Shown in pieces: positions 1,130 through 26,470 of a stretch of DNA of 64,000 bases. How positions within the stretch are numbered: position 1 is the first letter of the stretch; every line of letters begins with the position of its first letter. Origin of the DNA: Paecilomyces variotii (lineage: Eukaryota); the NCBI GenBank assembly GCA_004022145.1, contig RCNU01000003.1; one strand, written 5' to 3'. The position numbers were made by a program, and so were the translations under genes. Under the pieces are notes generated by a model that did no database searches, was not told where the DNA came from, and was given only the letters and a program-made list of their open reading frames with translations.

Positions 1130-3037
1130 TTACGGGAGTGATATTTTCCCAATAAAATCCTTCCCATCCGTGTTATAATACCCGCACACCACCAGATCTA
1201 CCGGCTGATCGATATCTAATAGCTTTAATTTCGACGTATCTTCCGCAACAGCTGGCAAAGCAAACGTGATGACCCGATCTTGCTCCCAATATGCAGCAAT
1301 CTGAGTTATGATCCGCTTGACGAGATGCGTGGGATAGTGCGAGTGCTCGTAGCCTCTCCCTCTGGACTCGAGTCGTGGCCAGAGGACATCCAATATGTAG
1401 TGAAATATCTTGTCGGAACGCCACAGTAGCACAAGTTGCAGGAGCACCTCTGTCAGACTGAGCGTGTACACATCCCATGTGTTTGACATGGTGAAATCGA
1501 GCGTGCCGGCAATTTGGCATATACTATCTGCCAGATTGTCAAGCAGAGTAGTGGAGTGTCCGGATCCTCCAGGGGGGGCTCCATTTGCTTCTTCGAAGGC
1601 AATCTCACAGAGCATGCAATATACAGCATTCATGGCGTCTCTATGAGTCGGAAATCCATGACACATGGACGAAGCATCCTGATTCATTTGACTTGGTGTG
1701 ATACGTAACGTCGGCAGCTGATCCGCATTAAGTCTGGATTTCCACACCTTCAGTCTTTCTTTCTGCACGTCTAACAAGCCGCGTAGGTGAGAGCCTCGTA
1801 CAAATCCCTCTCGTGCTTCTGCAGTCTCGTCCGGAACACTATCTCTTCCTAGTAATTTGTTCAACATCTCATATGCGACGTTGCTAATCTCGCTTGACAG
1901 CTCAGATATCCGACAGCTGCCCGCCACGCAACGGTAGACCACCATCTTTGTTCGAATCTCCATGGTCTTGATAAGAATGTCGTAGATAAGATCATCCACA
2001 TTCATTTCCAGGATGCACTTCATATATAGATGACCATTTGCATCCGGGAGGAGATTCGGCCCAAAAGAGCTGGCTCCTTCTCCTTCAAGAAGCAACGCAG
2101 GTGGCTTTGCTGGTCGATGGGACATGCATAAACGGTACCACAACTGCAACGCATCGGCTCCATCTGGCGAAGCCATTATCTTCGTTCTATTGTGCAGCAC
2201 AAACTGGACAGAATCCCACACTGCCAGTCGAAATCTCAGATGATCTGTCGATGCATGGTGGTAATAAGCTAGGAGAACGCGCGCAGCAACAAATGCAGGC
2301 GCTTCGTGTTCAATCTCGTCAACATTTGCAGCACTGCAATACTGCAGCGCCAGATCGTGATATACTCGCGCATTGCCATGATGCAAGTTATTCACTAATG
2401 GGCTAAAGACAGATCGTCGACGGTCGTTAGCTAGAACGCGGCTCTGAACGCGCGCATCTAACATTGACAGATTCGACGCCGCGATACAGAGTACTGCGAA
2501 CCGCAGACAAGGAAACATGATAAAAGATGCATCCGTAAATCGAAGAGACGCTGCCGGAAGGAGATGGCGTACATGTCTCTGGAAATGGTCAAAGTAGCTA
2601 GCCTCGAGACTGTCCGCAAAACTAACAAGAGTAGGCGGTAATTCTGAATTTCCAAGTTCACTCAGACACTTGAGCATATGAACATTACAGTTTTCACCTG
2701 CAATGTTGTCCAACACATTAGGCTTTGAATTAGCAGTAGCAGATCGCGATGGTGTCGTCTGAGTCATTCTATATTTCTGCAACAATGTTCCGTTGCAATT
2801 CCGAAAAGTAAAATCGACGCCATAACTGCATTCCAGCGATAGTCGCGCACAAGCCTGACAGCAGGGTCTTGTCTCATCGCACTAGATGGAGTTATATATA
2901 AGAATATACCCTCACGCCGATGTAAGAAAATCAGTACTAACTCGCTTGCCTCTTCTGCGACATGGCTTGCAACCCGTATGGTTGCGACGGATTTTGCGCG
3001 CTTTTACATTATTGGCAGATGCAGTCTGCGTTAGCAT
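1130..3037 (-). CDS. Zn(II)2Cys6 fungal transcription factor (~615 aa)
   Basis: Exons 3037-2942 and 2881-1130, intron 2941-2882 (GTTAGT...TAG). Spliced N-terminus RRNHTGCKPCRRRGKR|CDETRPCCQACARLSLECSY gives the six-Cys cluster, followed by a fungal TF middle region (LRFAVLCIAASNL). Confidence 0.9.
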
Positions 3038-3391: not shown

Positions 3392-4169
3392 ATGGAGCTT
3401 CATAATGTCACTCCCTCTGAGGTCAGCTTTGGAAAAAAGCTCTTTGTCTCCAAATTTTCTGCCATATTTCTCGTCACTGTTCGCAAAACAAAATGTGTTA
3501 TGAAAGTGGCAAGTCAGGCGACGATGATGCATTTGTTATCATATAACTAATCTAGTAAGCATCATGGACGAGGACCGCGACGGTATTATGAGCCGGAGGA
3601 CCGTGAATTGGATATTCATATCCTTGAGACTACCGCCTATACCCGTTTGAAAGATCATGGGCTATGCGATCGGGGAATTGTGCCTCGATTTCTTGGTTCC
3701 ATGGAAAAGTTTGATCCGTCGTTCTGTCAGCCTCACTTGAAGATGTTTTTACACGATGAGTACCTTCCTAGTGCCATCTTCTTGGAGTACATACCCAACT
3801 TAGAGATGATCCAGCTGCACAACTATACGCCGCAGCGGATGAATAATCTTCTAAATAGCATCCGGGAAATCCATTCCGCATTAGTGCGACATAAAGATCC
3901 AAAACCTAGGAATATGATGATTATTAAGGATGACCCAGAAAGAGTGGTCTGGATAGATTTCGATCGAGCGGAGACATATAACGAGGATCAAATAACCGAC
4001 AAACAAAAATACCTTCTGGAAAGGGAGGAAGTGATGGTTGTCGAATTCAAGAAATGCATAGTGAGTTCACTTAGTACCTAGAAAATGCTTAGCTTTCTAA
4101 TTCCATTCTCAGGAGGCCGACTATCAGAACGGCAAGCTCAACGAAGCGTATCTCTTTTACTGCACTTGA
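3392..4169 (+). CDS. Small stand-alone protein-kinase-like protein (~224 aa)
   Basis: Exons 3392-3508, 3560-4060 and 4113-4169; first intron GC-AG, second GTGAGT...CAG. Motifs CVMKV (ATP-binding Lys), ETTAYTRL (helix-C Glu), AIFLEYIP, HKDPKPRNMM (catalytic loop), WIDFDRA (DFG-equivalent). Confidence 0.85.
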
Positions 4170-4356
4170 TGCTCTCGATTTTCGAGGCTTAGAAACCCCA
4201 ATGTCGTGTCTTATTCTTTTTCCTTTGCTTTTCTTTCCCTATTCTTTTTCCGGCGATGAAGGGGAGTTTTTGATCTCAGAAGAGGAATACAACTTCAAAA
4301 ATATGTCTTTTTTACCTATTCCGTTGGCCATCGTATAGCTATAGGTATCATACGGG

Positions 4357-4995
4357 ATGATGTAGGAGGGACTGACGCTCACTTTTGGCCCCCTAACTCA
4401 TATTAACTTGAGAGTTCTGGAGCTGTTCGTTACGACCAGAGATATTCTGGGTACGAAAAGCGCTTTTCTCTTGCAGGGATGATTGTTGGCTGCCAATTCC
4501 AGCGGTAACCTTGTGTTAGTGTCGCCAAATAGATAGGCAATCAACGTGGTGTAGCGATACGCTGTTATCCCCGGAGAGACGGCAGAGATAGTGGCATCAG
4601 CAGAGGAGGAGTGACCAATAGCTGAGCCTACACAAGCGCCTATCAACAAAGCTCTAGAGTTGCGACCAGTGCTCTAACTCCAGTAATAGCACCAGAAGGA
4701 TATATGATACCTCCCTGTCACAGATATTGTAACTCGTCTATATGTGACTGGATCAGAGCTATCCATCATCCTAGGCGAGACGCGGCGCTTAGTATCATGC
4801 GTTATCTTATAAGAATTGTCTCCGGCGCTACCATTCTCTTCCAATAGGAGCTCCGGGATGATACCATACCTGGTACCGTAAGCTGCCTAAGATGCACATC
4901 GACTAGCCAATATTCAGAGAGTGGTTGCTGAAGCATCAACGAACCTAAGACGCAGAGTGCCGCCTTGTATTGTAAGGATCCTTGCTCATTGTTAG
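4357..4995 (+). pseudogene. Possible heavily decayed coding remnant between the kinase and nuclease genes
   Basis: A frame from ATG 4357 reads protein-like (e.g. LELRPVL*LQ**HQKD) if stops are read as C>T-mutated CAA/CAG/CGA, and the DNA is TA-rich. The stop count is close to random expectation, so support is weak. Confidence 0.25.
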
Positions 4996-5697
4996 CTTTC
5001 CTGCAGATTCAGAGCATATGTTCCAGTCATTGTATTGTTTTTTCTTTTTTTTTGCTCGTTTCACACCTGCAAGGGTGGTAGAACGTGCCCAGTTAAAGGT
5101 CTTGATTAAGCGCTATCAAATTGATACGGAACTCGCCATGGCCATACCATGGTGGGGGAGCAAGGTACGAGGTCGGCGGGGCAGTACTAAGTATACCGCC
5201 TTAGGACTATTTAGTATTAGCACCCCTTCTACCTAAGAGGGAGAATCCAAGCTTCTTACCTCCTCCTAGTCGTACCATATCACAAATACCGGCGTATATA
5301 TCCCCACATAAGGCAATGACATTATATCGCCAATCATTCAACCACATATCGTCGTCTCTGACTATACGGGCGCCGAAGACTAAATTAGGACCGTGCATGT
5401 ACCAATGAGATTAACATGCTATATTTACAAGCACAAGGCTGAAGCAGAGCTGAGTTTCCAGCGTTTCGCCTTTGTTGCGAACCAATCAATCACACAATAT
5501 TATGCGCCGTCGCGAAGTCAAAGCTCGCGATCGTGCCTTGAGACCTTTCTCGATAGATGGGCTTCCCATCTCTATATAAAGATGCCGTTTATAGTTACCA
5601 GCTGTCCAAGGAACGAGATTCTCTTTTGAGAAACCATCTTCTTCTTTCTTTTCGACTGCAAACTCGAAGGTTTTGGACCGCGACACTTCACATCGAT

Positions 5698-6492
5698 ATG
5701 GCAAACAATACCGTTTCTCTCATGGTCTATTTACAACATGCCCTACCAGCAATCCCAATAAACCCGCCACCACACCCGGGACGCAATACCACAAACACTG
5801 CAGATGAAGCAGATGACATCAGTGGAATTGCAGTCTGGCATGGATTCAACCTGCAGACTATCATTCATCGATACGGAAACATTCTTGGACAAACACACCT
5901 ACCGCCAGATCCTATGCCGACTTCACCTCCTCGTGCTATTACAGCAGGGAATGCCCTCAGAAGCAAGATCTACGAATATGTCTTTCCCAGAGTACGGCGG
6001 GGTCTGCGAGCTGCTTTCAATACCTTGACTGCAACCAATCAGATGAATGGGCTGACAAGCGTGTCAATTGATGTCGGAGAGGCTGCAAAGATTATTGAAA
6101 ATTATAAGCCTGATACTGCCTATTTTGCATTAGCACTCCCTGCTGGCACGAGTTGGAACCGCGCCCCTGGTGATATAAAACCCTCATGGAAATGGAGTAC
6201 AGCTTTAGCCAACCATCCGATGGATACTTATCGCGCAGAATTTCGTCAGGCACTCAGTCAAGTCAATTGGTATATGAGACAACATCATTCACGATATGGA
6301 TTCATTCTTACCAACCAGGAATTGGTTGTTATACGACGGTTGGATAACCATGGTAATCTGGAGCTTGCACCTCCAATTCCATTCACTGCGGGGGGAACCG
6401 TTGCGCAACCACGGATGACTGTCCTATTGGCATTATGGTACCTCGGAATGCTTGCTGCACAGGACCAAGGAGTTGACCGCTGGGATATGTGA
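5698..6492 (+). CDS. Fungal hypothetical protein with PD-(D/E)xK restriction-endonuclease-like motifs (264 aa, intronless)
   Basis: First ATG 5698 within ORF 5557..6492. Motifs YKPDTAYF...GDIKPSWKW...FRQALSQVNWYM...RYGFILTNQELVVIRR match the PD...(D/E)xK...QxxxY pattern of fungal REase-fold domains. Confidence 0.75.
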   Translation: MANNTVSLMVYLQHALPAIPINPPPHPGRNTTNTADEADDISGIAVWHGFNLQTIIHRYGNILGQTHLPPDPMPTSPPRAITAGNALRSKIYEYVFPRVRRGLRAAFNTLTATNQMNGLTSVSIDVGEAAKIIENYKPDTAYFALALPAGTSWNRAPGDIKPSWKWSTALANHPMDTYRAEFRQALSQVNWYMRQHHSRYGFILTNQELVVIRRLDNHGNLELAPPIPFTAGGTVAQPRMTVLLALWYLGMLAAQDQGVDRWDM

Positions 6493-6989
6493 TGTAAACG
6501 CAGGGATACTGTACTCCAGCTCATTTCACGACTAGATTTCCTTCTTCAGGGATTGTAATATTCTATTCTATTTGAAACTCTCCATGGATTTCATGGATTT
6601 TACATATAGTTCTCAGAAGATTCTGAACAGACAGAAACGATCCCTATAACCACCACTTCTGTTAATGCGCTCAAAGGAACAGACAATGGATCTTGTTTAA
6701 GCCCAAGGCAGCCACTATTAGGTAATAATGTAAGCAGACTGCTTCCCGAGTAGATAGATAGATACAGATGCAATTCAGTTATGCAGACCTGTGGACCGGA
6801 GTGCAAATATCAAATTAACTTTGGAAGACTGGGGTAGAGTCTGCGCAATGTCTTCAGAGGGCATTGGTTACTTATAGTGCTTAGTCCGTACGCACAATGC
6901 TGCAAATAAAGTGCCTTGGCACCGTTGTGCTTGGTACCCATAACAAGAAGACGGAGAAATAGAATTGCAGGTTTCTTTGATTATCTCCT

Positions 6990-7135
6990 CTATAGGATAA
7001 AATTATATTTATTACTTTGCTGAATATAAAAGTTTTAGAATTTAAATTTTGACTCCTACTAGTATATAATATAATTCTAGTATTAATATAATGATATATT
7101 AGTAGATTAGGAACATCCTTTTTTTATCCTAAGTT
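6990..7135. other. Very AT/TA-rich tract (RIP-like relic) at the right edge of the kinase/nuclease patch
   Basis: Sequence such as ataaattatatttattac...ctagtatataatataattctagtattaatataatgatatattagtag, much more AT-rich than the flanking genes. Confidence 0.45.
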
Positions 7136-7469
7136 TATACTCAAGGAGGCATCATATTTTGTAAATGTGTATACTTCAACTAAGATACGTACGATGGATT
7201 GCACAGAAGATGAACTGCGAAGAGACTCATGACATTACATCCTACTTCGAACGTCCTAGTCATATACATCAGAGGCGAATGAAACTCGTGCATAAATCAG
7301 AAGCGTCGTCAAAATGTAAAGGAAAACGCCAGAGAAAACAGGGAACCACGCGTAATATAGGGAGCACGAATCTCCCATGCAAAAAGACATTTCAACACAA
7401 GGGATAAAAAAGCGATCGCCCAACTATGCGGGTATCAAGAGACGCATCGTGTACTGTCTGTCAAAGCCT

Positions 7470-10400
7470 CTATGCGGAGCCCAGGTACTTGAGCACAGAT
7501 TCCCTCTCCTCCACGGGAAGCATGCTCAGCACTTGCTGGACACCACGCAGACCGCCGTCCTTGTTGCCCATGAGCAGCTGGGCAACGTCATACGCGACAT
7601 TCTCAGACTTGAGAGATTCGATCTTGGCCTGGACCAACTTCTTGTTGTCTTCATACCACTGCGCAACCTGGCGATCGTTGCGGTCGAACTCACTGTCGAG
7701 AAGGCCGGTCCAAGACTTCAGAGTACGAAGGTGGGTTTCGCGAGCGGAGCCACTGTTGTTCTGGGTAGGAGCAACAGAAGCATCGGCGGGGAGCGCGCCG
7801 CTGGTCTGGGGGACAGCAGAGGGTGCGGCAGCGATCATGCGCTTGAGAATCAACTCCTCACTGAGACGGCGGCGAAGACGCCAGTAGAAGAAGCGTCTAG
7901 CCTCCTTCCAGCGCAGAGCCTGTCGGATAGTGCCCTTGGCCTCCATACGGCCGGCACGGTCGTGGAGATCGGCGAATTGCAGGGCAATCTGCTGGTAGAC
8001 TGGTAGGAGCTGCTCCTCACGCTCTGCCATCTTGGCCTTAATCTCCGACAGCTGCTCCTTGCTGAGCGACGTGTCTTGGAGAGACCTGCGAAGCTCGCCA
8101 TAAGTCGGGTCCAGGCGGGCCATGGTGTCGAGCTGCTTCTCGCGACGGTACTTGATTCCGACGATACCTTCGGGCTCGAGAACACCACCACGAGACTCCT
8201 CATCCGCATACATCTCCATCAGGTCAGGGTTGATGGTGGGATCGATGACGACCCACGAACCACCTCGGAGTTCACCAAACGGCGGGATGTAGACGAAGAT
8301 AGGCTGTTCGTACTTGACGAGGGCATCGACAATGTAGGAACCGTACTTTAGAACCTCGTTGTACATGTCACGCTGACCTCCAGAGAAACCTCTCCAGTTA
8401 GCCAAGATCATGACTGGCAGTTGCTCTCCGTGGTTGAAGTCCTTAAGAGCCTGGGCGGTCTTGAAGGCGGAGTTGGGGTACCAGACTCCACCAGCCTCAG
8501 TGCTCACCATCTCAGTCGAATCGGGGTTGGCAGGGTCGGCAGGAGTCACATTGTCAACAGAGCGAGTCTCAACTGCAATGACACCCATGGGGATACCACC
8601 GAGTCTGGCGCGCCCAACAACAACGGTTCTAGCCCATCCACCGAGAGCCTCCTCGAAAGAGTCCTTGTCGAACAGACCGGGCAGGAAGGCATCCTCCTCC
8701 TGCTTACCAGCAATGAGCCATCGCACATCGTAGGGCTGCTTGGTGGAGGGGGGATAGTAGAGGATGTCACGATCCCAGGGGTCAGACCAGGGACGGATAG
8801 GAACAGGGGCATCCTTCTTGTCCGGAACGTAGGACAGCCACTCGACAATCTTCTGAACACCCTCGAAGTCGTCATTGGCAGTCATGTGGGACACACCATT
8901 CTTGTACATGATCTGCGTGCCACCCAGTTGGAGGTTGGAGGTGTAGACTTCACGGCCAAGGAGCTTGTTGATGGCAGGTGCACCAGTCAGGATGATGGGC
9001 TGGCCTTCGACCTGAATGGCTCTCTGTCCGAGACGAACCAGGTAGGCACCAATACCGACGGAACGGCACGTCACCAGGGTGATGGTGAAGATGTCTTCGT
9101 AGGCTCTGGAGGTGGCACCGGCAATGAGACCGGATCCCCTCAGACACTCAACACCCAGGCCATCCTTGGCACCGATAACGGTGGTGATCTTGTACCTGTC
9201 CTCGCCATCCTCGTGGACCAATTCGGTAATGACTTCCTTGTTCTTGCTGGCGTCGAATCTCTGCTTGACCTCTGGCGTCAGGTAGAGGTACTTGAATCCG
9301 GCCTCTGGATGCTCGGGGTCGTTCCAGGCGACGGAGAAGTGGGGGATCAATTCATCCGCCATTCCAATACGAGCGCCGGAGTTAGCGGACAGGTAAATGC
9401 GAGGAATACCCAGCTTACGGGCCAGCTCGGTGCATTTGTGGAAGAACTTGTCCTCCAGCGGGCCGAAGGAACCGATCTGGTAGGTGATATCGTTGGCAAC
9501 AATGATGAACCGTCTACCTTGGGGGTATTCGGGGGTACGAGCGGTGACGATCCAGCCGACCATACCGTGAGTGTTGGTACCCGCCTCTCTCGAGACCTCC
9601 ACCAGGTTGTCCCTGTCATCGAGCACCAGTTCAGAGTAGTCGATGCACTCACCCACAGGCGGACGCTTGTCGGACAAGGAGGGAATCTTCGAGATGGCCC
9701 GGGTCCAGCTGTTCTGGACAGCCTGTCTGAACAGCTCCGGGAAATCGTAGACGTACTGGGTACCCATCAAATGAGCCTTGTACCGCTTCGGCTGAAGCCA
9801 CTCCTTGGTCGGGTACGGGGTTGACACGGGGCGCAGGTGCATGGAGCCAATCTTGTTGGTGCCACCAATGCTGTGGAAGACCCATTCGCCCTTCTCCGAC
9901 TTCCTCTCAACGTAGAGTTCCACCTGAATGATATATCCATAGGTGTTTGTGATGATGACACGGAGAGGGTAGGCCATTCCAGTTGCAGGGTCAGTGCAGA
10001 GAATACGGATCTCTGCACCAGTGACGCGCAGGCGCCACAGACGGCGTCCGAAACGATCCAAGAAGCCGGCCAGGGCCTCCTCCACATCGTTGGGCTCCAG
10101 GTTGAAGACCGGAGAGAAGTTAATGAAGATGTGGTTGAGGTCGGAGTTGTTGTTGCCAATGATCTCCAAAGCATCCAGGATATCGTTCATCAACCGGTCT
10201 GCCTCTGAGATCAGGTATTCCGCAGTAGGGATGTCGTCCCGCAGGCGTCCAGGACGCACCACAGCACGAGTGAAGTAGCGCTTGTCCACAGCCTTGTCGT
10301 TCTCGGGGCCCTTGCCGATGGCTTCGTAGACGTGGATGTTCCGGTTCTCCGTGAAGACCGGCTTGATGCGGAACTTGGAAAGACGGCCCAGTTCAAGCTG

Positions 10401-13400
10401 GAAGGCCAGAGCAGGCTCACTGTGACGAATACTCTCATCCTCCTGGTAAGACGGTCCCCTGAAGGTGAAATAACCGGGGTAGGCACCATCCTTGTGACCG
10501 CAGATGAAGGTCACCCGACGAATACGGCGGGCGAGGAACTCTTCCTTGAAACCGGCCACCAGGTCGTTGATCTGCGAGACAAGCTCCGTGTCATCCAGAG
10601 CCTCCACGTCACGAATAGCCACATTGAGAACATTGCTGAGCTCGTCGCTCTCCGGCTTCTGAGAGGGCTTGCGCTTGCCAGACAGATCAGCCAGCAGACC
10701 TTCGTTGGCCTTCTTGACCGGAGAGCCAGCGCGCGGGAAGACTTCGAGGGCCTTGGGCAGGTATTCTTCAGCCTCTTCCAGGTACTGGACAGGGATAATA
10801 ACACCCTGTCTAGTGGGTTCACCTCCGTTCTCGTTGATGAAATAGGACATATCACTGATGGAGTTGATTCTCCTGTTGAAAGTGTCGCTGGTTGGGGTGC
10901 CAGGAGCGGACGGGTGAGAAGATGTGATAGGCAGGCCGTATTCACTCTGGCCAACTTTGCCCAGAATGAAGTCCCACGAGACGAATGGAGGTTCATTGTC
11001 GTGGTGATACTGAATGCCCTTCAACTGATACGCCCGGTAAGCTCTGCGGACGTACACTTCCAGGGCGGCTAAAGAGACCCACGGGTCCTGGTGACAGAAG
11101 AAGTGCGGGAGTACATCGAAAACGGTGTACTTGGAATCAACGACCTCCTTGAGCACGTTGATATCGGGTTCCCGGTGGTCCCAGCCGGTTTCACCATACC
11201 TGGACTCCACGACTGACGAACGCAAGATAAGCTCCATCTGAGAGGCTCTCTCCTCCAAGGACGGCAGGGCGCTTTGAATGAGTAGCTCACGAGCCTTGAG
11301 GGCCACCTTGGACGAAGCTCGGGATTCGAGCTCGGTCAACTTTCTGAGAATAGGCTTAAAGTGCTTGCCGACGTTTCCGACGTTAGGTCGGTTCGGACGG
11401 TACATGTCGAGGATGGCCAGGATGAGGTTGTTCTTGGAGCTGACCTTGCTGTGCGACAAGACGGTGTAAACAACCTTGAGGATGTCATCCTTGTTCTCAT
11501 CTCTGAGCTTGAGAATGGCATCCTCGTCGCGAACGTTACGTCCGGTAAATAGATGCTCGACCTCCCAGTACTGCTCCAGGAGACCAATGAAGACGTCGAA
11601 CTCGTGGGTCTTCAGACCATCCATGTATCGGTCGATAACGGTCAAAAGAGGGAGCAGAGTCGTTCGGAGTGTCTCAGCATCACCCGGGTTGACATTTTCC
11701 TCAATGAAGCGCGAGATGGTCTTCTGCAGCTGCTTGGCAGGGAATTCAGCCTTGCGAGTCTTTGCACGATCCACCACCTGGACGAGCTGAGCGTCAAGCT
11801 TCTGAGGAATGCGAGAGTGCAGTGCGGAAAATTGAGCGTTCCATTCTCCGTACGGAAGCTCAGGATCGCGGAGGACTTCGACGAGTTCTTTGAGGGTCGA
11901 ACCCATGATAATCTGGTTGTCAAAACCCCTGAGGATGTTCTCGAGGATGCTGTACAAAAGGACGTAGCGCTGAGGCGGCTTGTTTCCAACCACCTGAGGC
12001 GGGCCCAGATCGGGGAGCTGCCCAGTGAACGGCTGGGCGTGCTTCACGCGTGAAGGGTCATCCAAAGTCAGGATTCCCATAATATCGCCAGCCTCCAGAG
12101 TGGCGCCAGGTTGCTTGATGAACTGGACGATACCATCCTCCTGAGCGATGAGAGGCATGTACATCTTCATCACCTCAACCTCCGCGAAGGGCTGACCGGT
12201 CTTGACATGGGAGCCGTTTTCCACGGTGAACTTCACCAGCTTACCGGGACTGGGGGTTCGCAGCTGGGTGGGGTCATTCTCCTGCTCGAGCAAGCAAGTC
12301 TTGCCGTCCACGCTCAGACGGGTGGCGGCAGCTTCCTCCTTCCAGTAGACGTTGTGGCTGCGACCATTCAGCAGGACAAGCAGACCACCGTCCGCGAGAG
12401 CACGGACGCCGACGGAGCACTTGGAGCCGTTGATGAAGAGAGTGTAGCTGTCCAAGCTTGCGCGGGTCGCGGTGAACTTGTATCGTGAACCCTCGTAGAT
12501 GAAGTCGACGGGGAAGACTGTCTTCAGGACGTCCTTGGCGGGAACCTGACCCTTCTCTAGACCCTTGCGGTATTCCGCAATGCATTCCTCGCTGGCCTGG
12601 TGGGCTTTCGTAACAGCTCCGCAGATGACAGCGAGAATGGGGTCGGGACGCTCAGCGGTCAGCTTGTTGCTGATCAGCTGGTCCAGCCAGCCCGTGGTAA
12701 TGGTGTTCTCTTCGAAGGCGGGAGTCTCGAGCAGCTTGATCAGGTACTCAACGGTGGTGCGGAAATCACCACGGATGCTCAGTTCCTTCAGGGCAACAAC
12801 CATGTGCTTTCGAGACGCCGATCGGTTCTCGCCGTAGGCGAAGATGTGACCGAACTGGCTGTCCGAGAAACTGTGGATTCCACCCGAGCTACCGACGGAG
12901 AAATAACCCCAGACGTTAGACGAACTTCGGAAGTTCAGCTCGTGCATGGTACCGCTGGAGGGCTTGAATCCCTCACCGGGATCTTCGGAGGTGATACGAC
13001 AAGCGGTGGTATGTCCCTTGGGCTGCGGGCGACGCTGGGTCTTGAAGCTCTCCTCACTCTTGAACTCGAAGTCGATCTCAGACGAGGTGTTGGGGTCGAC
13101 ACCGTAGAGCAGACGAATGTCACGGATGCGGTGCAGGGGGATACCCATGGCAATCTGCAGCTGAGCGGCAGGCAGATTGACGCCGGAAACCATCTCCGTG
13201 GTGGGATGCTCGACCTGGAGACGGGGGTTCAACTCGAGGAAGTAGAACTTGTCATCCGCATGCGAATACAGATATTCGACGGTACCGGCGGAGACGTAGC
13301 CGACCAGTTTTCCCAGGCTAACAGCAGCCTTCTCCATGGCCTGGAAGGTAGATGGCTTGGCAATGGTGACGGGAGCTTCCTCGATAATCTTCTGGTGTCG

Positions 13401-14596
13401 TCGCTGGACGGAACAATCTCTTCCGAAAAGGGAGATGTTGTTTCCGTACTGATCGGCCAGCAGTTGCACCTCCAAATGTCTCGCCTCGCCGGCCAGCTTC
13501 ATGATGAAGATTGGCGATCCGGGAATCTCACTGGCGGCCGCATTGTACAGGGTGATAAAGTCTTCTTCCTTCTCGACCTTTCGGATACCCTTACCACCGC
13601 CTCCTTCGGAGGCCTTGACCATGACGGGGAACCCAATCTCGCGGGCTTTCTGGAGACCCTCCTCGGGCGAATGTGTGCATCCCTTGTCATAGACCTCATC
13701 CTCGACCGTGACGATGCCGTTCTCGTCAATTGTCACTTGGTCGACACCCGATCCCGACCACGGGATACAGGGCACATTGGCGTGCTGTGCGACAATGGTG
13801 GAGGAGATCTTGTCACCCAGCGAGCGCATGGCCGATGCGGGCGGACCAATGAAAATGATCTTCTTGGGCGAGGCCGCTAGTGATTCTGGCAGCCTTGGGT
13901 TCTCTGAAGCATGGCCCCTGCGAGCTGAGTCAGTTTCGCGCAATTGTTGTCTGACAGTCTCATTTTTACGGCTTACCATCCTGCCCAGACGGCGTGCACG
14001 TCCATTCTCTCCGCAATGTCGACAATCAGTTCGACGTTGGCGTAGTTATTATTATTAGTACCTCCGGGAACCTATACCACGGAGAACCAACGTCAGCACA
14101 TCCCACGTAGAAAATTTCTTTGTGCGGGAAAATGAGCCAACCGTACCTCCACATACTGATCGGCCATACGAATGTAATCTGCGTTGGCCTTGAGATCCTC
14201 TGGCGTGGCCATGACGGTGAACTGGATGGCGCGCTCGTTGCCAAACGTCTCGTAGGCCCATTTTCGTACTGATCGGATCTCCTTGACTGCAGCAATACCG
14301 TTGTTGGCAATCAACACCTAGAAAAATCAAAATCAAATCCTCACTGTCAGCCCGTCTGTCGTGTACGAAATTTCACTGTGGGGGGGTGCTGTTTTCACCG
14401 CTCCCCCCAATACTGAAATGGGACGTACGGAAGTAATGACGGAGTGACCGCCGTGAGCGGCCACAAAGTCCTTGACGTTGCTGGGAGGAGCAACATCGAG
14501 GGCGTTTCCACCGACGAAATGTGAGGGGATATCGTATTTGGCAGCGAGAGAGCTGCCGTGCCCGTTGGTGGCACCCGTTCCGTTACTAAGACCCAT
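7470..14596 (-). CDS. ACC1: Acetyl-CoA carboxylase, multidomain BC-BCCP-CT (~2293 aa)
   Basis: Exons 14596-14429, 14317-14147, 14071-13977 and 13917-7470 join in frame with canonical GT-AG introns. Motifs [38 protein letters not shown], biotin site EVMKM, carboxyltransferase ANSGARIG and [13 protein letters not shown]. Confidence 0.98.
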
Positions 14597-24979: not shown

Positions 24980-26470
24980 TCAGCCTATGTTCAGGCGACG
25001 GAGTCCAAACTGGACACTCGGCTCAGACTCCTCTTCCTCTTCTTCCTCTTCCTCTTCTTCCTCTTCCTCTTCTTCGACTTCGTTTCTCCAAGACAAGCCA
25101 GCACCCGCCGGCCTATGGAAATCTGGGTCAAGATCCTCATCTGAAGCGTCGGCCGCCCCACTCATAGCAAGAACACGATGTAAAGTCCACTGGAGCTGGA
25201 GTAATTTAACCGATGGCAGAGGAAGTTTGACTGGATCCGTCGTACGGAAAGTGAGGACATCGCCAGACCTAATCTTCTCCTCAGTTGCGAGCCTGAATAG
25301 CTTGGCAGAAGGTATGCCGTCCCTGGTGCTGGAGATAAGATCGGGGGCAATAGGCGACGGAAGTCGGGTGATTGACTGGCTTTTACGATAATCCATTGTA
25401 TGCAGCCAAAAGAATTTCACGGTCAGGGTTGTTTCGTCATCGCTCAGCTGAAGTGGGTATAGAGCAAAACGAGCCTTTTCCCACAATTGATGGGCGATAT
25501 TACTGAAGCACATGAGATTGGCGCAATGCTCGGTTGCTTGAGGTCCCAGTACTTTGGCCTTCCAGGAGTTAATCTTTTCTAGTGTCCAGAAGTTAGACAG
25601 AGTTTCCCAAAACTGCTCCTGTTCTATCTTGCTCTTCTGACCCAGAGAAACAGGGTAGATATGTGCTATCTCTATCGGCTCTGTGAAACCAGTGATAAGG
25701 CAAGTAGAATCGTCTCATTTTTCGCATTAAGGTAGATTAGTAGATAGTTCGGACATGTTATAATAGTTTAAAATTACTAGCTTTCTGGCAGACTTCTTGC
25801 GAGCGGTACTAGTTTTGCTTGATGTTATGCTGGGCTTGGCCAAAGAAGTGGTCGCCTTCTGGGGGCTTGGTCCGGTGACTAGCTTGGGAATCTTTGATGG
25901 AGATTTTCCCATGGCATCAGCTTTTCTCTTCCGCCAAGTATCCACGCGGTGCACTAGATGGATGTGTGATACTCTCCCTGGCACGAATCCGACGTATTTC
26001 AAGGACTTCGACGCTCTCTTCCTCCATCGGGATGTCGAAGGTTTGGACGACATCAGGTTCGAAACCCCGTATTCTGACGGGCAGACAAATTGAAGAATTC
26101 ACAGGACTCGATGCTAAAAATAGTATGCACTCGGTATCAGATATTTCCAATCTCAGGAAGACTATATACTTTCGGATGTAGTCGATCACGAAGGCATACT
26201 AGCTTTGCGTCCCATATGTACCAGGTAGTAGTGGATGGAGCAATAACCCTCTGCTCCTTGCTGGATCAGCTTATCGGAGATCTTTCGCATAAGATCACGA
26301 AAGCTTTGGCATTCTTCCCCATCTGGGTTATCTCTATAAAGACCAGATCTCCATGAACTGCCACGCAAAGGTATAATTATATAAGAAGCTAGCAATGATA
26401 TATATATAGCATTGACAGGCTTAAGCTGCCCGGTGCTTGGATTCTCTAGCAAGCTCAGGATATTTATCCT
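24980..26470 (-). pseudogene. HNH-endonuclease (fungal HNH_2/Crinkler-type) pseudogene
   Basis: From 25726 the frame reads CEK*DDSTCLITG..EIAHIYPVSL..FW..W..TEHCANLMCFSNIAHQLWEKARFALYP..PLPSVKLLQLQWTLHRVLAMSGAA. There is an in-frame TGA at 25717-25715, the intron 25777-25727 ends in AA instead of AG, and the 5' part is broken across frames. The 5' boundary is approximate. Confidence 0.8.
25029..25075 (-). repeat. (GAA/GAG)n trinucleotide repeat encoding poly-Glu in the HNH tail
   Basis: tcctcttcctcttcttcc... on the + strand, EEEEEEEEEEEEEEEE in ORF 24980..25513. Confidence 0.9.

Follow-up and report, generated by a model that had tools for sequence, protein, structure and literature searches.

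Spok proteins kill by DNA damage through a nuclease, and a kinase confers resistance in cis as well as in trans (PMC6660238, PMC9972908, PMC12693581). In these papers, it is given as unresolved how the kinase protects against the nuclease (PMC6660238, PMC9972908, PMC12693581), and the question is hard to settle partly because poison and antidote share one protein. Of the C-termini of CR (Crinkler) effectors, about one in six pairs a restriction endonuclease (REase) with a kinase (PMC5289972), the REase being held responsible for toxicity and the kinase for regulation (PMC5289972; Zhang et al., 2016, cited second-hand; also PMC12693581). Here we report on a stretch of 64,000 nucleotides from contig RCNU01000003.1 of Paecilomyces variotii (assembly GCA_004022145.1; "the window" below means this whole stretch), in which the same types of enzyme are encoded by two neighbouring genes as separate proteins of 264 and 224 amino acids. 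On balance, we read this pair as a toxin-antidote module made up of two genes, with a nuclease that damages DNA and a kinase that binds it and probably phosphorylates it. Such a pair would work like Spok and the Crinklers combining REase and kinase, yet it belongs to neither. Since the two enzymes are separate here and come with a confident binding model and a candidate phosphorylation site, the question of Spok resistance becomes directly testable, in yeast and in vitro. Herein lies the main interest of the pair, which could give a simple way into how spore-killer genes protect their carriers.

With Spok and FuSpok from Podospora and Fusarium the pair shares the combination of a PD-(D/E)xK nuclease featuring a QxxxY motif with an atypical kinase. 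HsdR from V. vulnificus (3h1t), reported as the best HHpred match of the SPOK3 killing domain (PMC6660238), is also a structural relative of the present nuclease (VIA Z 7.1), and broken as well as antidote-only copies are described for Spok, too (PMC12693581). Among the Atlas neighbours listed for the nuclease, a single one bears a Pfam name, a SPOK2_N cluster (score 0.91, with 178 features in common and the family on 76% of its members), which we regard as a lead only. Spok is one protein of about 700 amino acids, whereas the two genes considered here have separate open reading frames (ORFs) 1528 bp apart; the coiled coil, domain 1 and the Cys cluster of Spok have no pattern match in the pair; the spacing from K to QxxxY is 54 in SPOK3 and 27 here; and the pair occurs mostly in Eurotiomycetes, whereas close Spoks are found in only one Eurotiomycete according to Vogan et al. 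(PMC6660238). Membership in Spok was rejected, as the pair is not a single polypeptide and has no Cys cluster. Crinklers likewise couple a REase to a kinase; they carry a header and are fused, whereas the present genes are headerless, unfused and without signs of secretion. As there is neither an N-terminal header (Ubl/LxLFLAK) motif nor an extra domain in either structure model, membership in the Crinklers was rejected, too. Of the Spok/Crinkler-like two-gene module proposed in an earlier note on this DNA, the toxin-antidote part is retained as the likelier reading, carried by the REase fold, co-occurrence, binding model and one-sided decay set out below, and the Crinkler assignment is given up.

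In some bacterial toxin-antitoxin pairs the toxin undergoes chemical modification by its antitoxin, kinase antitoxins being an example. The pair resembles them in its small adjacent genes for a toxin and an enzyme-antitoxin, in predicted direct binding and in orphan antitoxins, and differs from them in being eukaryotic, with a spliced kinase gene and flexible orientation. In Neurospora, Sk-2 and Sk-3 comprise separate killer and resistance genes (PMC9972908). The two-gene poison-antidote layout in a filamentous ascomycete is thus common to these killers and our pair. The proteins involved are not known to be related. Our search of the open literature brought up no description of a two-gene form, and the excerpts of PMC12957317 and PMC10104507 hold nothing further on such pairs; neighbouring stand-alone genes for CR-REase and kinase may, however, be listed already in the text or supplements of Zhang et al. 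(2016).

The two proteins and their genes

The AF2 structure model of the nuclease is a single domain without Cys (predicted local distance difference test, pLDDT, 95.9). Its top VIA matches are BpuSI (Z 10.1, root-mean-square deviation, rmsd, 3.3, 149 aligned residues) and DrdV (Z 8.6), most of the 50 VIA rows share the REase fold, and the top Foldseek matches are REase-like at E about 1e-3, none lying under 0.001. Comparison with Pfam assigned no family to the query and gave only scattered weak matches among 82 members, and there was no match among PDB sequences. PD139, D159-x-K161 and Q188xxxY192 are present; among 172 homologues, D139 is kept in 158, D/E159 in 138, K161 in 152, Q188 in 146 and Y192 in 152. 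Fold and conserved PD and (D/E)xK motifs place the protein in the PD-(D/E)xK superfamily.

The kinase model is a short, minimal RIO-like protein-kinase fold, again a single domain (pLDDT 96), with Rio2 as best VIA match (Z 15.1, rmsd 3.5, 165 aligned residues), tied with other kinases; the match to Pfam Pkinase has an E value of 3e-5, yet remains below the curated cut-off. K38, E62, HKDPKPRN (H150-D152-N157) and DFD are present and conserved in the family, so that fold and the residues K, E, HxDxxxxN and DFx identify a member of the protein-kinase-like superfamily. The N-termini of both proteins fold into their domains in the structure models.

Both genes are transcribed and the kinase gene is spliced: among the RNA contigs from four runs, intron 1 is skipped in one and intron 2 in two, and the spliced product is identical to database protein P0123. 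The non-canonical GC-AG intron 1 is read through or mis-spliced in several database gene models of relatives. The two genes lie on the same strand, with the kinase gene upstream and equipped with its own stop and poly(A) end, and their closest named records are from P. variotii (98-100%). Several predictions from the letters alone are borne out, namely two intact, co-oriented genes about 1.5 kb apart between a transcription factor gene and ACC1, the PD...DIK...Q motifs and the REase fold of the second protein. The minimal kinase with its K, E, HxDxxxxN and DFD residues also stands, except that it is encoded by three exons and not by one ORF. An in-frame ATG at 5557 would extend the nuclease to 311 amino acids, and the possible leader upstream of its start contains six further ATGs that are out of frame or short. 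A start at 5245 is weak because RNA contigs cannot show a start; since the contig in question begins inside a solo long terminal repeat (LTR), the latter might supply an upstream start.

Linkage and joint inheritance

The genome contains at least 11 loci of the nuclease family (10 and one weak fragment) and 12 of the kinase family (11 and one relic), three further genome queries having yielded no additional loci of either kind. At five of the 11 nuclease loci a kinase gene is located at most 1.6 kb away, twice in tandem and three times divergently, which by chance is expected with a probability of 5e-12 for five independent events and of 1e-4 for only two. A metagenome scan gave 31 nuclease loci (18 distinct, 13 holding at least 4 kb). 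Eight of these 13 contain a kinase gene (five divergent, two tandem with the nuclease first, one convergent) and the remaining five are nuclease fragments of at most 110 residues. Locus L058 (2.7 kb; kinase-like ORF without Pfam match) stands outside this count and is included in the 14 pairs with DNA considered for decay below. Consecutive accessions were found in five of seven species (A. granulosus, A. fumigatus A1163, R. emersonii, A. ochraceoroseus and C. immitis); in A. avenaceus and A. terreus the genes are neighbours by locus tag, and in Emmonsiellopsis they are two tags apart. Linkage is retained across four orientations and down to about 25-35% identity.

Distances between nucleases and between kinases are correlated (Mantel r 0.73 for 22 pairs and 0.74 for 18, p 1e-4), and most clades are common to both trees; in the set of 22, 19 pairs are linked by DNA, accession or locus tag, two are inferred from contigs of equal length and one is a fusion. 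The pair thus exhibits the conserved tight linkage and joint inheritance of a toxin-antidote system. The pairing is real, exceeds chance by far and probably has a function, and the co-occurrence that the earlier note had asked for is evident in genome, metagenome and accession data alike.

In P. variotii itself we found 11 consecutive accession pairs. The kinase gene occurs on 23 NCBI contigs as compared to 24 for an unlinked kinase paralogue, and the locus therefore looks near-fixed, at odds with the presence/absence polymorphism raised as a check in the earlier note. D139, D159 and K161 are kept in all P. variotii alleles compared (12 sequences).

Some gene arrangements deviate from the simple pair. 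At L057 (1871-3211, minus strand), which belongs to a distant nuclease clade, two kinase-like genes reside in tandem beside the nuclease gene; the second is of another subtype that also seems to occur beside L058 (3-590, minus strand). P0263 (JGI, 497 amino acids) features nuclease and kinase in one model, in Spok order and with degenerate motifs. It may be a gene-model merger, and in both trees its two parts fall together with L052, a divergent pair. P0043 has the look of a run-through. No long fused nuclease-kinase form turned up in a set of 8000 candidates (514-2000 amino acids), which is weak evidence.

Predicted complex and one-sided decay

The complex of the two proteins obtained with ESMFold2 scores 0.88, the best of three controls 0.00. 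Of solved pairs of microbial origin, 51 of 78 attain the mark applied to this score, as do two of 108 mismatched ones; for eukaryotic pairs the numbers are 39 of 65 solved and two of 126 mismatched. Runs share at least 89% of the contacts, with a partner pLDDT of 93, and a pass by mere memorisation of the model is less likely because we found no solved structure related to the nuclease by sequence. On the side of the nuclease, the modelled interface comprises residues 23-40, 133-135, 164-166 and 175-195, which include N30, T31, W164-W166 and Q184 and adjoin both catalytic motifs; the interface residues K154, R156 and R175 of the kinase surround its active site in the model. T31 is 98% conserved in alignment A1. 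A T or S occupies this position in 114 of the 117 homologues whose catalytic residues are intact as compared to 18 of 34 degenerate ones (p 9e-10, the sequences not being independent), 16 control positions giving p values from 3e-4 to 1. We infer from this that T31 is a candidate phosphorylation site; it cannot be read off the model directly because the output omits which nuclease residue faces D152 of the kinase.

In the most divergent P. variotii allele, nine of the 30 differences in the nuclease lie at the interface (3.4 expected, p 0.006), as do seven of 25 in the kinase (3.4 expected; p 0.09 after weighting for variability). Strict compensatory change at the interface was considered and rejected, as D176A, T177G and A180T also occur with kinases lacking the facing changes.

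Decay of the pairs is one-sided. Among the 14 pairs with DNA, five are open in both genes (one kinase being cut by the contig end), four consist of a broken nuclease gene beside an open kinase exon and in five both genes are broken or dead; none combines a broken kinase with an intact nuclease. In the genome, seven of 12 kinases look intact as compared to one of nine nucleases, a count that omits a long conserved gene on C67 and a fragment on C23 (p 0.037). On contig C45 the nuclease frame is open, with PD changed to PE, DIK to AVR and the NT motif lost, and the adjoining kinase is a relic.

A defence or cell-death switch of benefit to the host, with a nuclease that is quiet alone and is licensed or activated by the kinase once a signal arrives (virus, transposon, non-self fusion), would explain linkage, co-divergence and binding equally well. 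It would also go well with a locus that is near-fixed and intact across strains, with allele differences enriched at the modelled interface and with CRN proteins combining REase and kinase, for which no more is proposed than that the kinase should "regulate" the REase (PMC5289972). An activator should decay with its nuclease, whereas here kinases outlast nucleases; in addition, the model sets the kinase beside the catalytic motifs of the nuclease, and neither Pfam nor the models point at a further sensor-capable domain in either protein. We thus regard such a switch as rather unlikely. Still less likely, in our view, is a toxin that reaches competitors where hyphae touch or by leaking out, the kinase serving as immunity protein and orphan kinases guarding against the nucleases of other strains. 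The four intact-looking orphan kinases in the genome are suggestive of it, as is the pairing of REase and kinase in CR effectors (PMC5289972). At variance with it, the proteins lack a header and the LxLFLAK motif, a signal peptide is not evident in either, their stand-alone size is conserved across homologues and no delivery gene adjoins the pair in the window.

The toxin-antidote module that we favour would be operated as follows. With both genes transcribed, the nuclease, if unchecked, would damage the cell's own DNA; fold and catalytic residues are in place and the activity is assumed by analogy with Spok. The cognate kinase is predicted to bind beside the catalytic motifs and may neutralise the nuclease, most likely by phosphorylating Thr31; blocking of the DNA-binding face is conceivable in addition. 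A nucleus or spore without the locus and with leftover nuclease would die, and for this reason the pair would stay together and spread, possibly also between genera. For a host, the way out would be to shed the nuclease before the kinase, and the relics would be accounted for in this way.

A number of observations speak against this reading. Toxin without antidote was encountered in none of the 14 pairs; possible exceptions are, however, A. fumigatus A1163, with an intact nuclease beside a kinase model without catalytic loop (intact kinases 99% identical to it exist in other records), as well as Lipomyces kononenkoae and P. brasiliensis Pb03 (Paracoccidioides), in which the two genes are present and not adjacent. 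Kinase integrity was judged mainly by the large exon, frameshifts in metagenomes may be assembly errors, and the same one-sided decay would be expected of a pair from which the host benefits through the kinase alone. The species compared were chosen since both genes were already among the matches, the p values of the tree comparison are too small because the pairs share ancestry, and matching trees indicate joint inheritance, not function. The mark for a complex is also reached by seven of 44 blind neighbour pairs, and T31 could serve catalysis or DNA binding instead. Finally, a near-fixed locus leaves nothing to drive against within P. variotii, and four of the 12 P. variotii sequences, alleles covering eight of the 23 contigs, carry Q188E.

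If the toxin-antidote reading is right, a family of "hypothetical proteins" would consist of selfish elements, with possible consequences for cross fertility, for the outcome of heterokaryons and for how accessory DNA is retained. A much wider proposal, which we put forward tentatively and with more doubt than confidence, is that filamentous ascomycetes harbor a widespread, unreported family of bacterial-style toxin-antitoxin pairs, in which a stand-alone DNase is switched off by its cognate minimal kinase phosphorylating a conserved N-terminal Thr. Many such pairs in parallel would have diversified interfaces, would move between genera, Lipomyces yeasts included, and would serve for addiction or for spore killing; fused forms built on the same logic would be Spok and the Crinklers with REase and kinase. 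In that case the pair would supply the missing resistance mechanism.

Distribution and genomic surroundings

A profile of the nuclease retrieves 1337 clusters at 50% identity, and the family is common in genomes of Aspergillus, Penicillium, Paecilomyces and Onygenales. In databases its members are named hypothetical proteins or mislabelled as BUD32, FTA2 or fungal-type kinase. A pattern scan found no bacterial, archaeal or viral relatives of the nuclease; a 112-residue "Bacillus" record on a 337-bp contig was discarded as apparent contamination, given its match to an allele of P. variotii. Neighbour genes in the window have counterparts in P. lecythidis and "P. variotii No. 5" at 89-94%. Among the top 120 matches, neither has one above 54% to either protein, and the pair therefore seems to be absent from their annotation. 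Kinases from Coccidioides and Trichophyton are 94.6% identical, and copies from Lipomyces, which is placed among the yeasts, reach 74-78%. Copies this similar across genera suggest horizontal movement.

It is against this background that two unrelated passengers or remnants of mobile elements, linked only by descent, have to be considered. Patchy distribution, the signs of transfer between Coccidioides and Trichophyton, a Gag-like zinc-knuckle gene beside the Onygenales copies and the many relics would fit this view. Given that linkage is kept through four orientations and to about 25-35% identity, that the complex model passes, that catalytic residues are conserved in both families and that the pair is surrounded by no terminal repeats, with matches to DUF3435 on another contig, we consider it very improbable.

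The Gag-like gene (113 amino acids) is near-identical in the Onygenales records P0482, P0486, P0487 and P0489. It adjoins the kinase gene in Coccidioides and resides two tags from the nuclease gene in Helicocarpus, which hints at retroelement-linked transfer. As a third component of the module it was rejected, being absent from the window and from all loci examined. P0022, a further nuclease paralogue of P. variotii (62%) with only two NCBI records, is a better candidate for a polymorphic, still-spreading copy. On contig C67 (G000:C67), a gene for a 682-residue protein (L032, 4196-6244, minus strand) is homologous to the nuclease in its C-terminal part (hhalign 98.7%); it lacks PD/DxK, has no family kinase within about 5 kb and is possibly a domesticated copy.

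Coordinates of the pair and its flanks are collected in Table 1. The match of the left-flank gene to Pfam Zn_clus is weak (E=0.02), and the long frame on the right is presumably ACC1, as judged from its translation. The earlier description of the surroundings as TA-rich and decayed, and hence as an argument for selection on the pair, does not hold: TpA/ApT of the spacer is 0.93 at a GC content of 46%, and seven other low-coding stretches of the window span 0.59-1.01. The spacer is ordinary non-coding DNA, the solo LTR excepted, and no RNA genes were found in it. Positions 4708-5155 are uncovered in three of four RNA runs and run X1 is DNA-like, neither of which proves anything. An eroded look is limited to the solo LTR, whose composition resembles that left by repeat-induced point mutation (TpA/ApT 1.8), and to an AT-rich patch at 6940-7160 (GC 24%). 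The latter is weakly similar to G000:C67:148962-149073 and possibly a repeat relic, while the solo LTR is 81% like three other places in the genome (L072, L073, L074), so that its family has at least four copies.

Table 1. Positions of genes, transcript features, key residues and flanking elements, counted from the first letter of the window
Feature	Position	Strand	Remark
Zn2Cys6-like transcription factor gene, left flank	1130..2963	-	start approximate; outside the module
Kinase gene, 224 amino acids, three exons (3392-3508, 3560-4060, 4113-4169)	3392..4169	+	spliced coding sequence is P0123
Kinase K38	3503-3505	+	
Intron 1, GC-AG, 51 nt	3509..3559	+	51-nt skip in RNA contig, run X7
Kinase E62	3626-3628	+	
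Kinase catalytic D152	3896-3898	+	
Kinase DFD	3956-3964	+	
Intron 2, GT-AG, 52 nt	4061..4112	+	skip in RNA contigs, runs X5 and X12
Kinase 3' untranslated region to poly(A) loose end at 4314	4170..4314	+	run X7 only
CAAAT, 5-bp target duplication of the solo LTR	5117-5121 and 5283-5287		
Solo-LTR-like insertion, 161 bp, TGATA...TATCA	5122..5282	.	incidental to the pair
Possible long nuclease 5' leader	5245..5697	+	weak; one RNA contig begins at 5245
Nuclease gene, single ORF, 264 amino acids, PD-(D/E)xK restriction-endonuclease fold	5698..6492	+	covered by RNA contigs
Nuclease N30-T31	5785-5790	+	
Nuclease D139	6112-6114	+	
Nuclease D159	6172-6174	+	
Nuclease K161	6178-6180	+	
Nuclease Q188xxxY192	6259-6273	+	
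Long open frame of acetyl-CoA carboxylase, right flank	7470..14045	-	outside the module

Around the pair, a search for a transposon boundary or for terminal repeats gave repeats at chance level only, and the block as a whole has no second copy in the genome according to a search with its DNA. Cargo of a Starship was ruled out, as matches to DUF3435 occur only on contig C45, the flanks of the locus are ordinary genes, and neither captain nor element boundaries were found around it. Elsewhere in the window, at 24980-25714 on the minus strand, an ORF encodes an HNH_2 endonuclease domain (Pfam E 5.6e-9) and an acidic tail; it is a second conflict-type nuclease.

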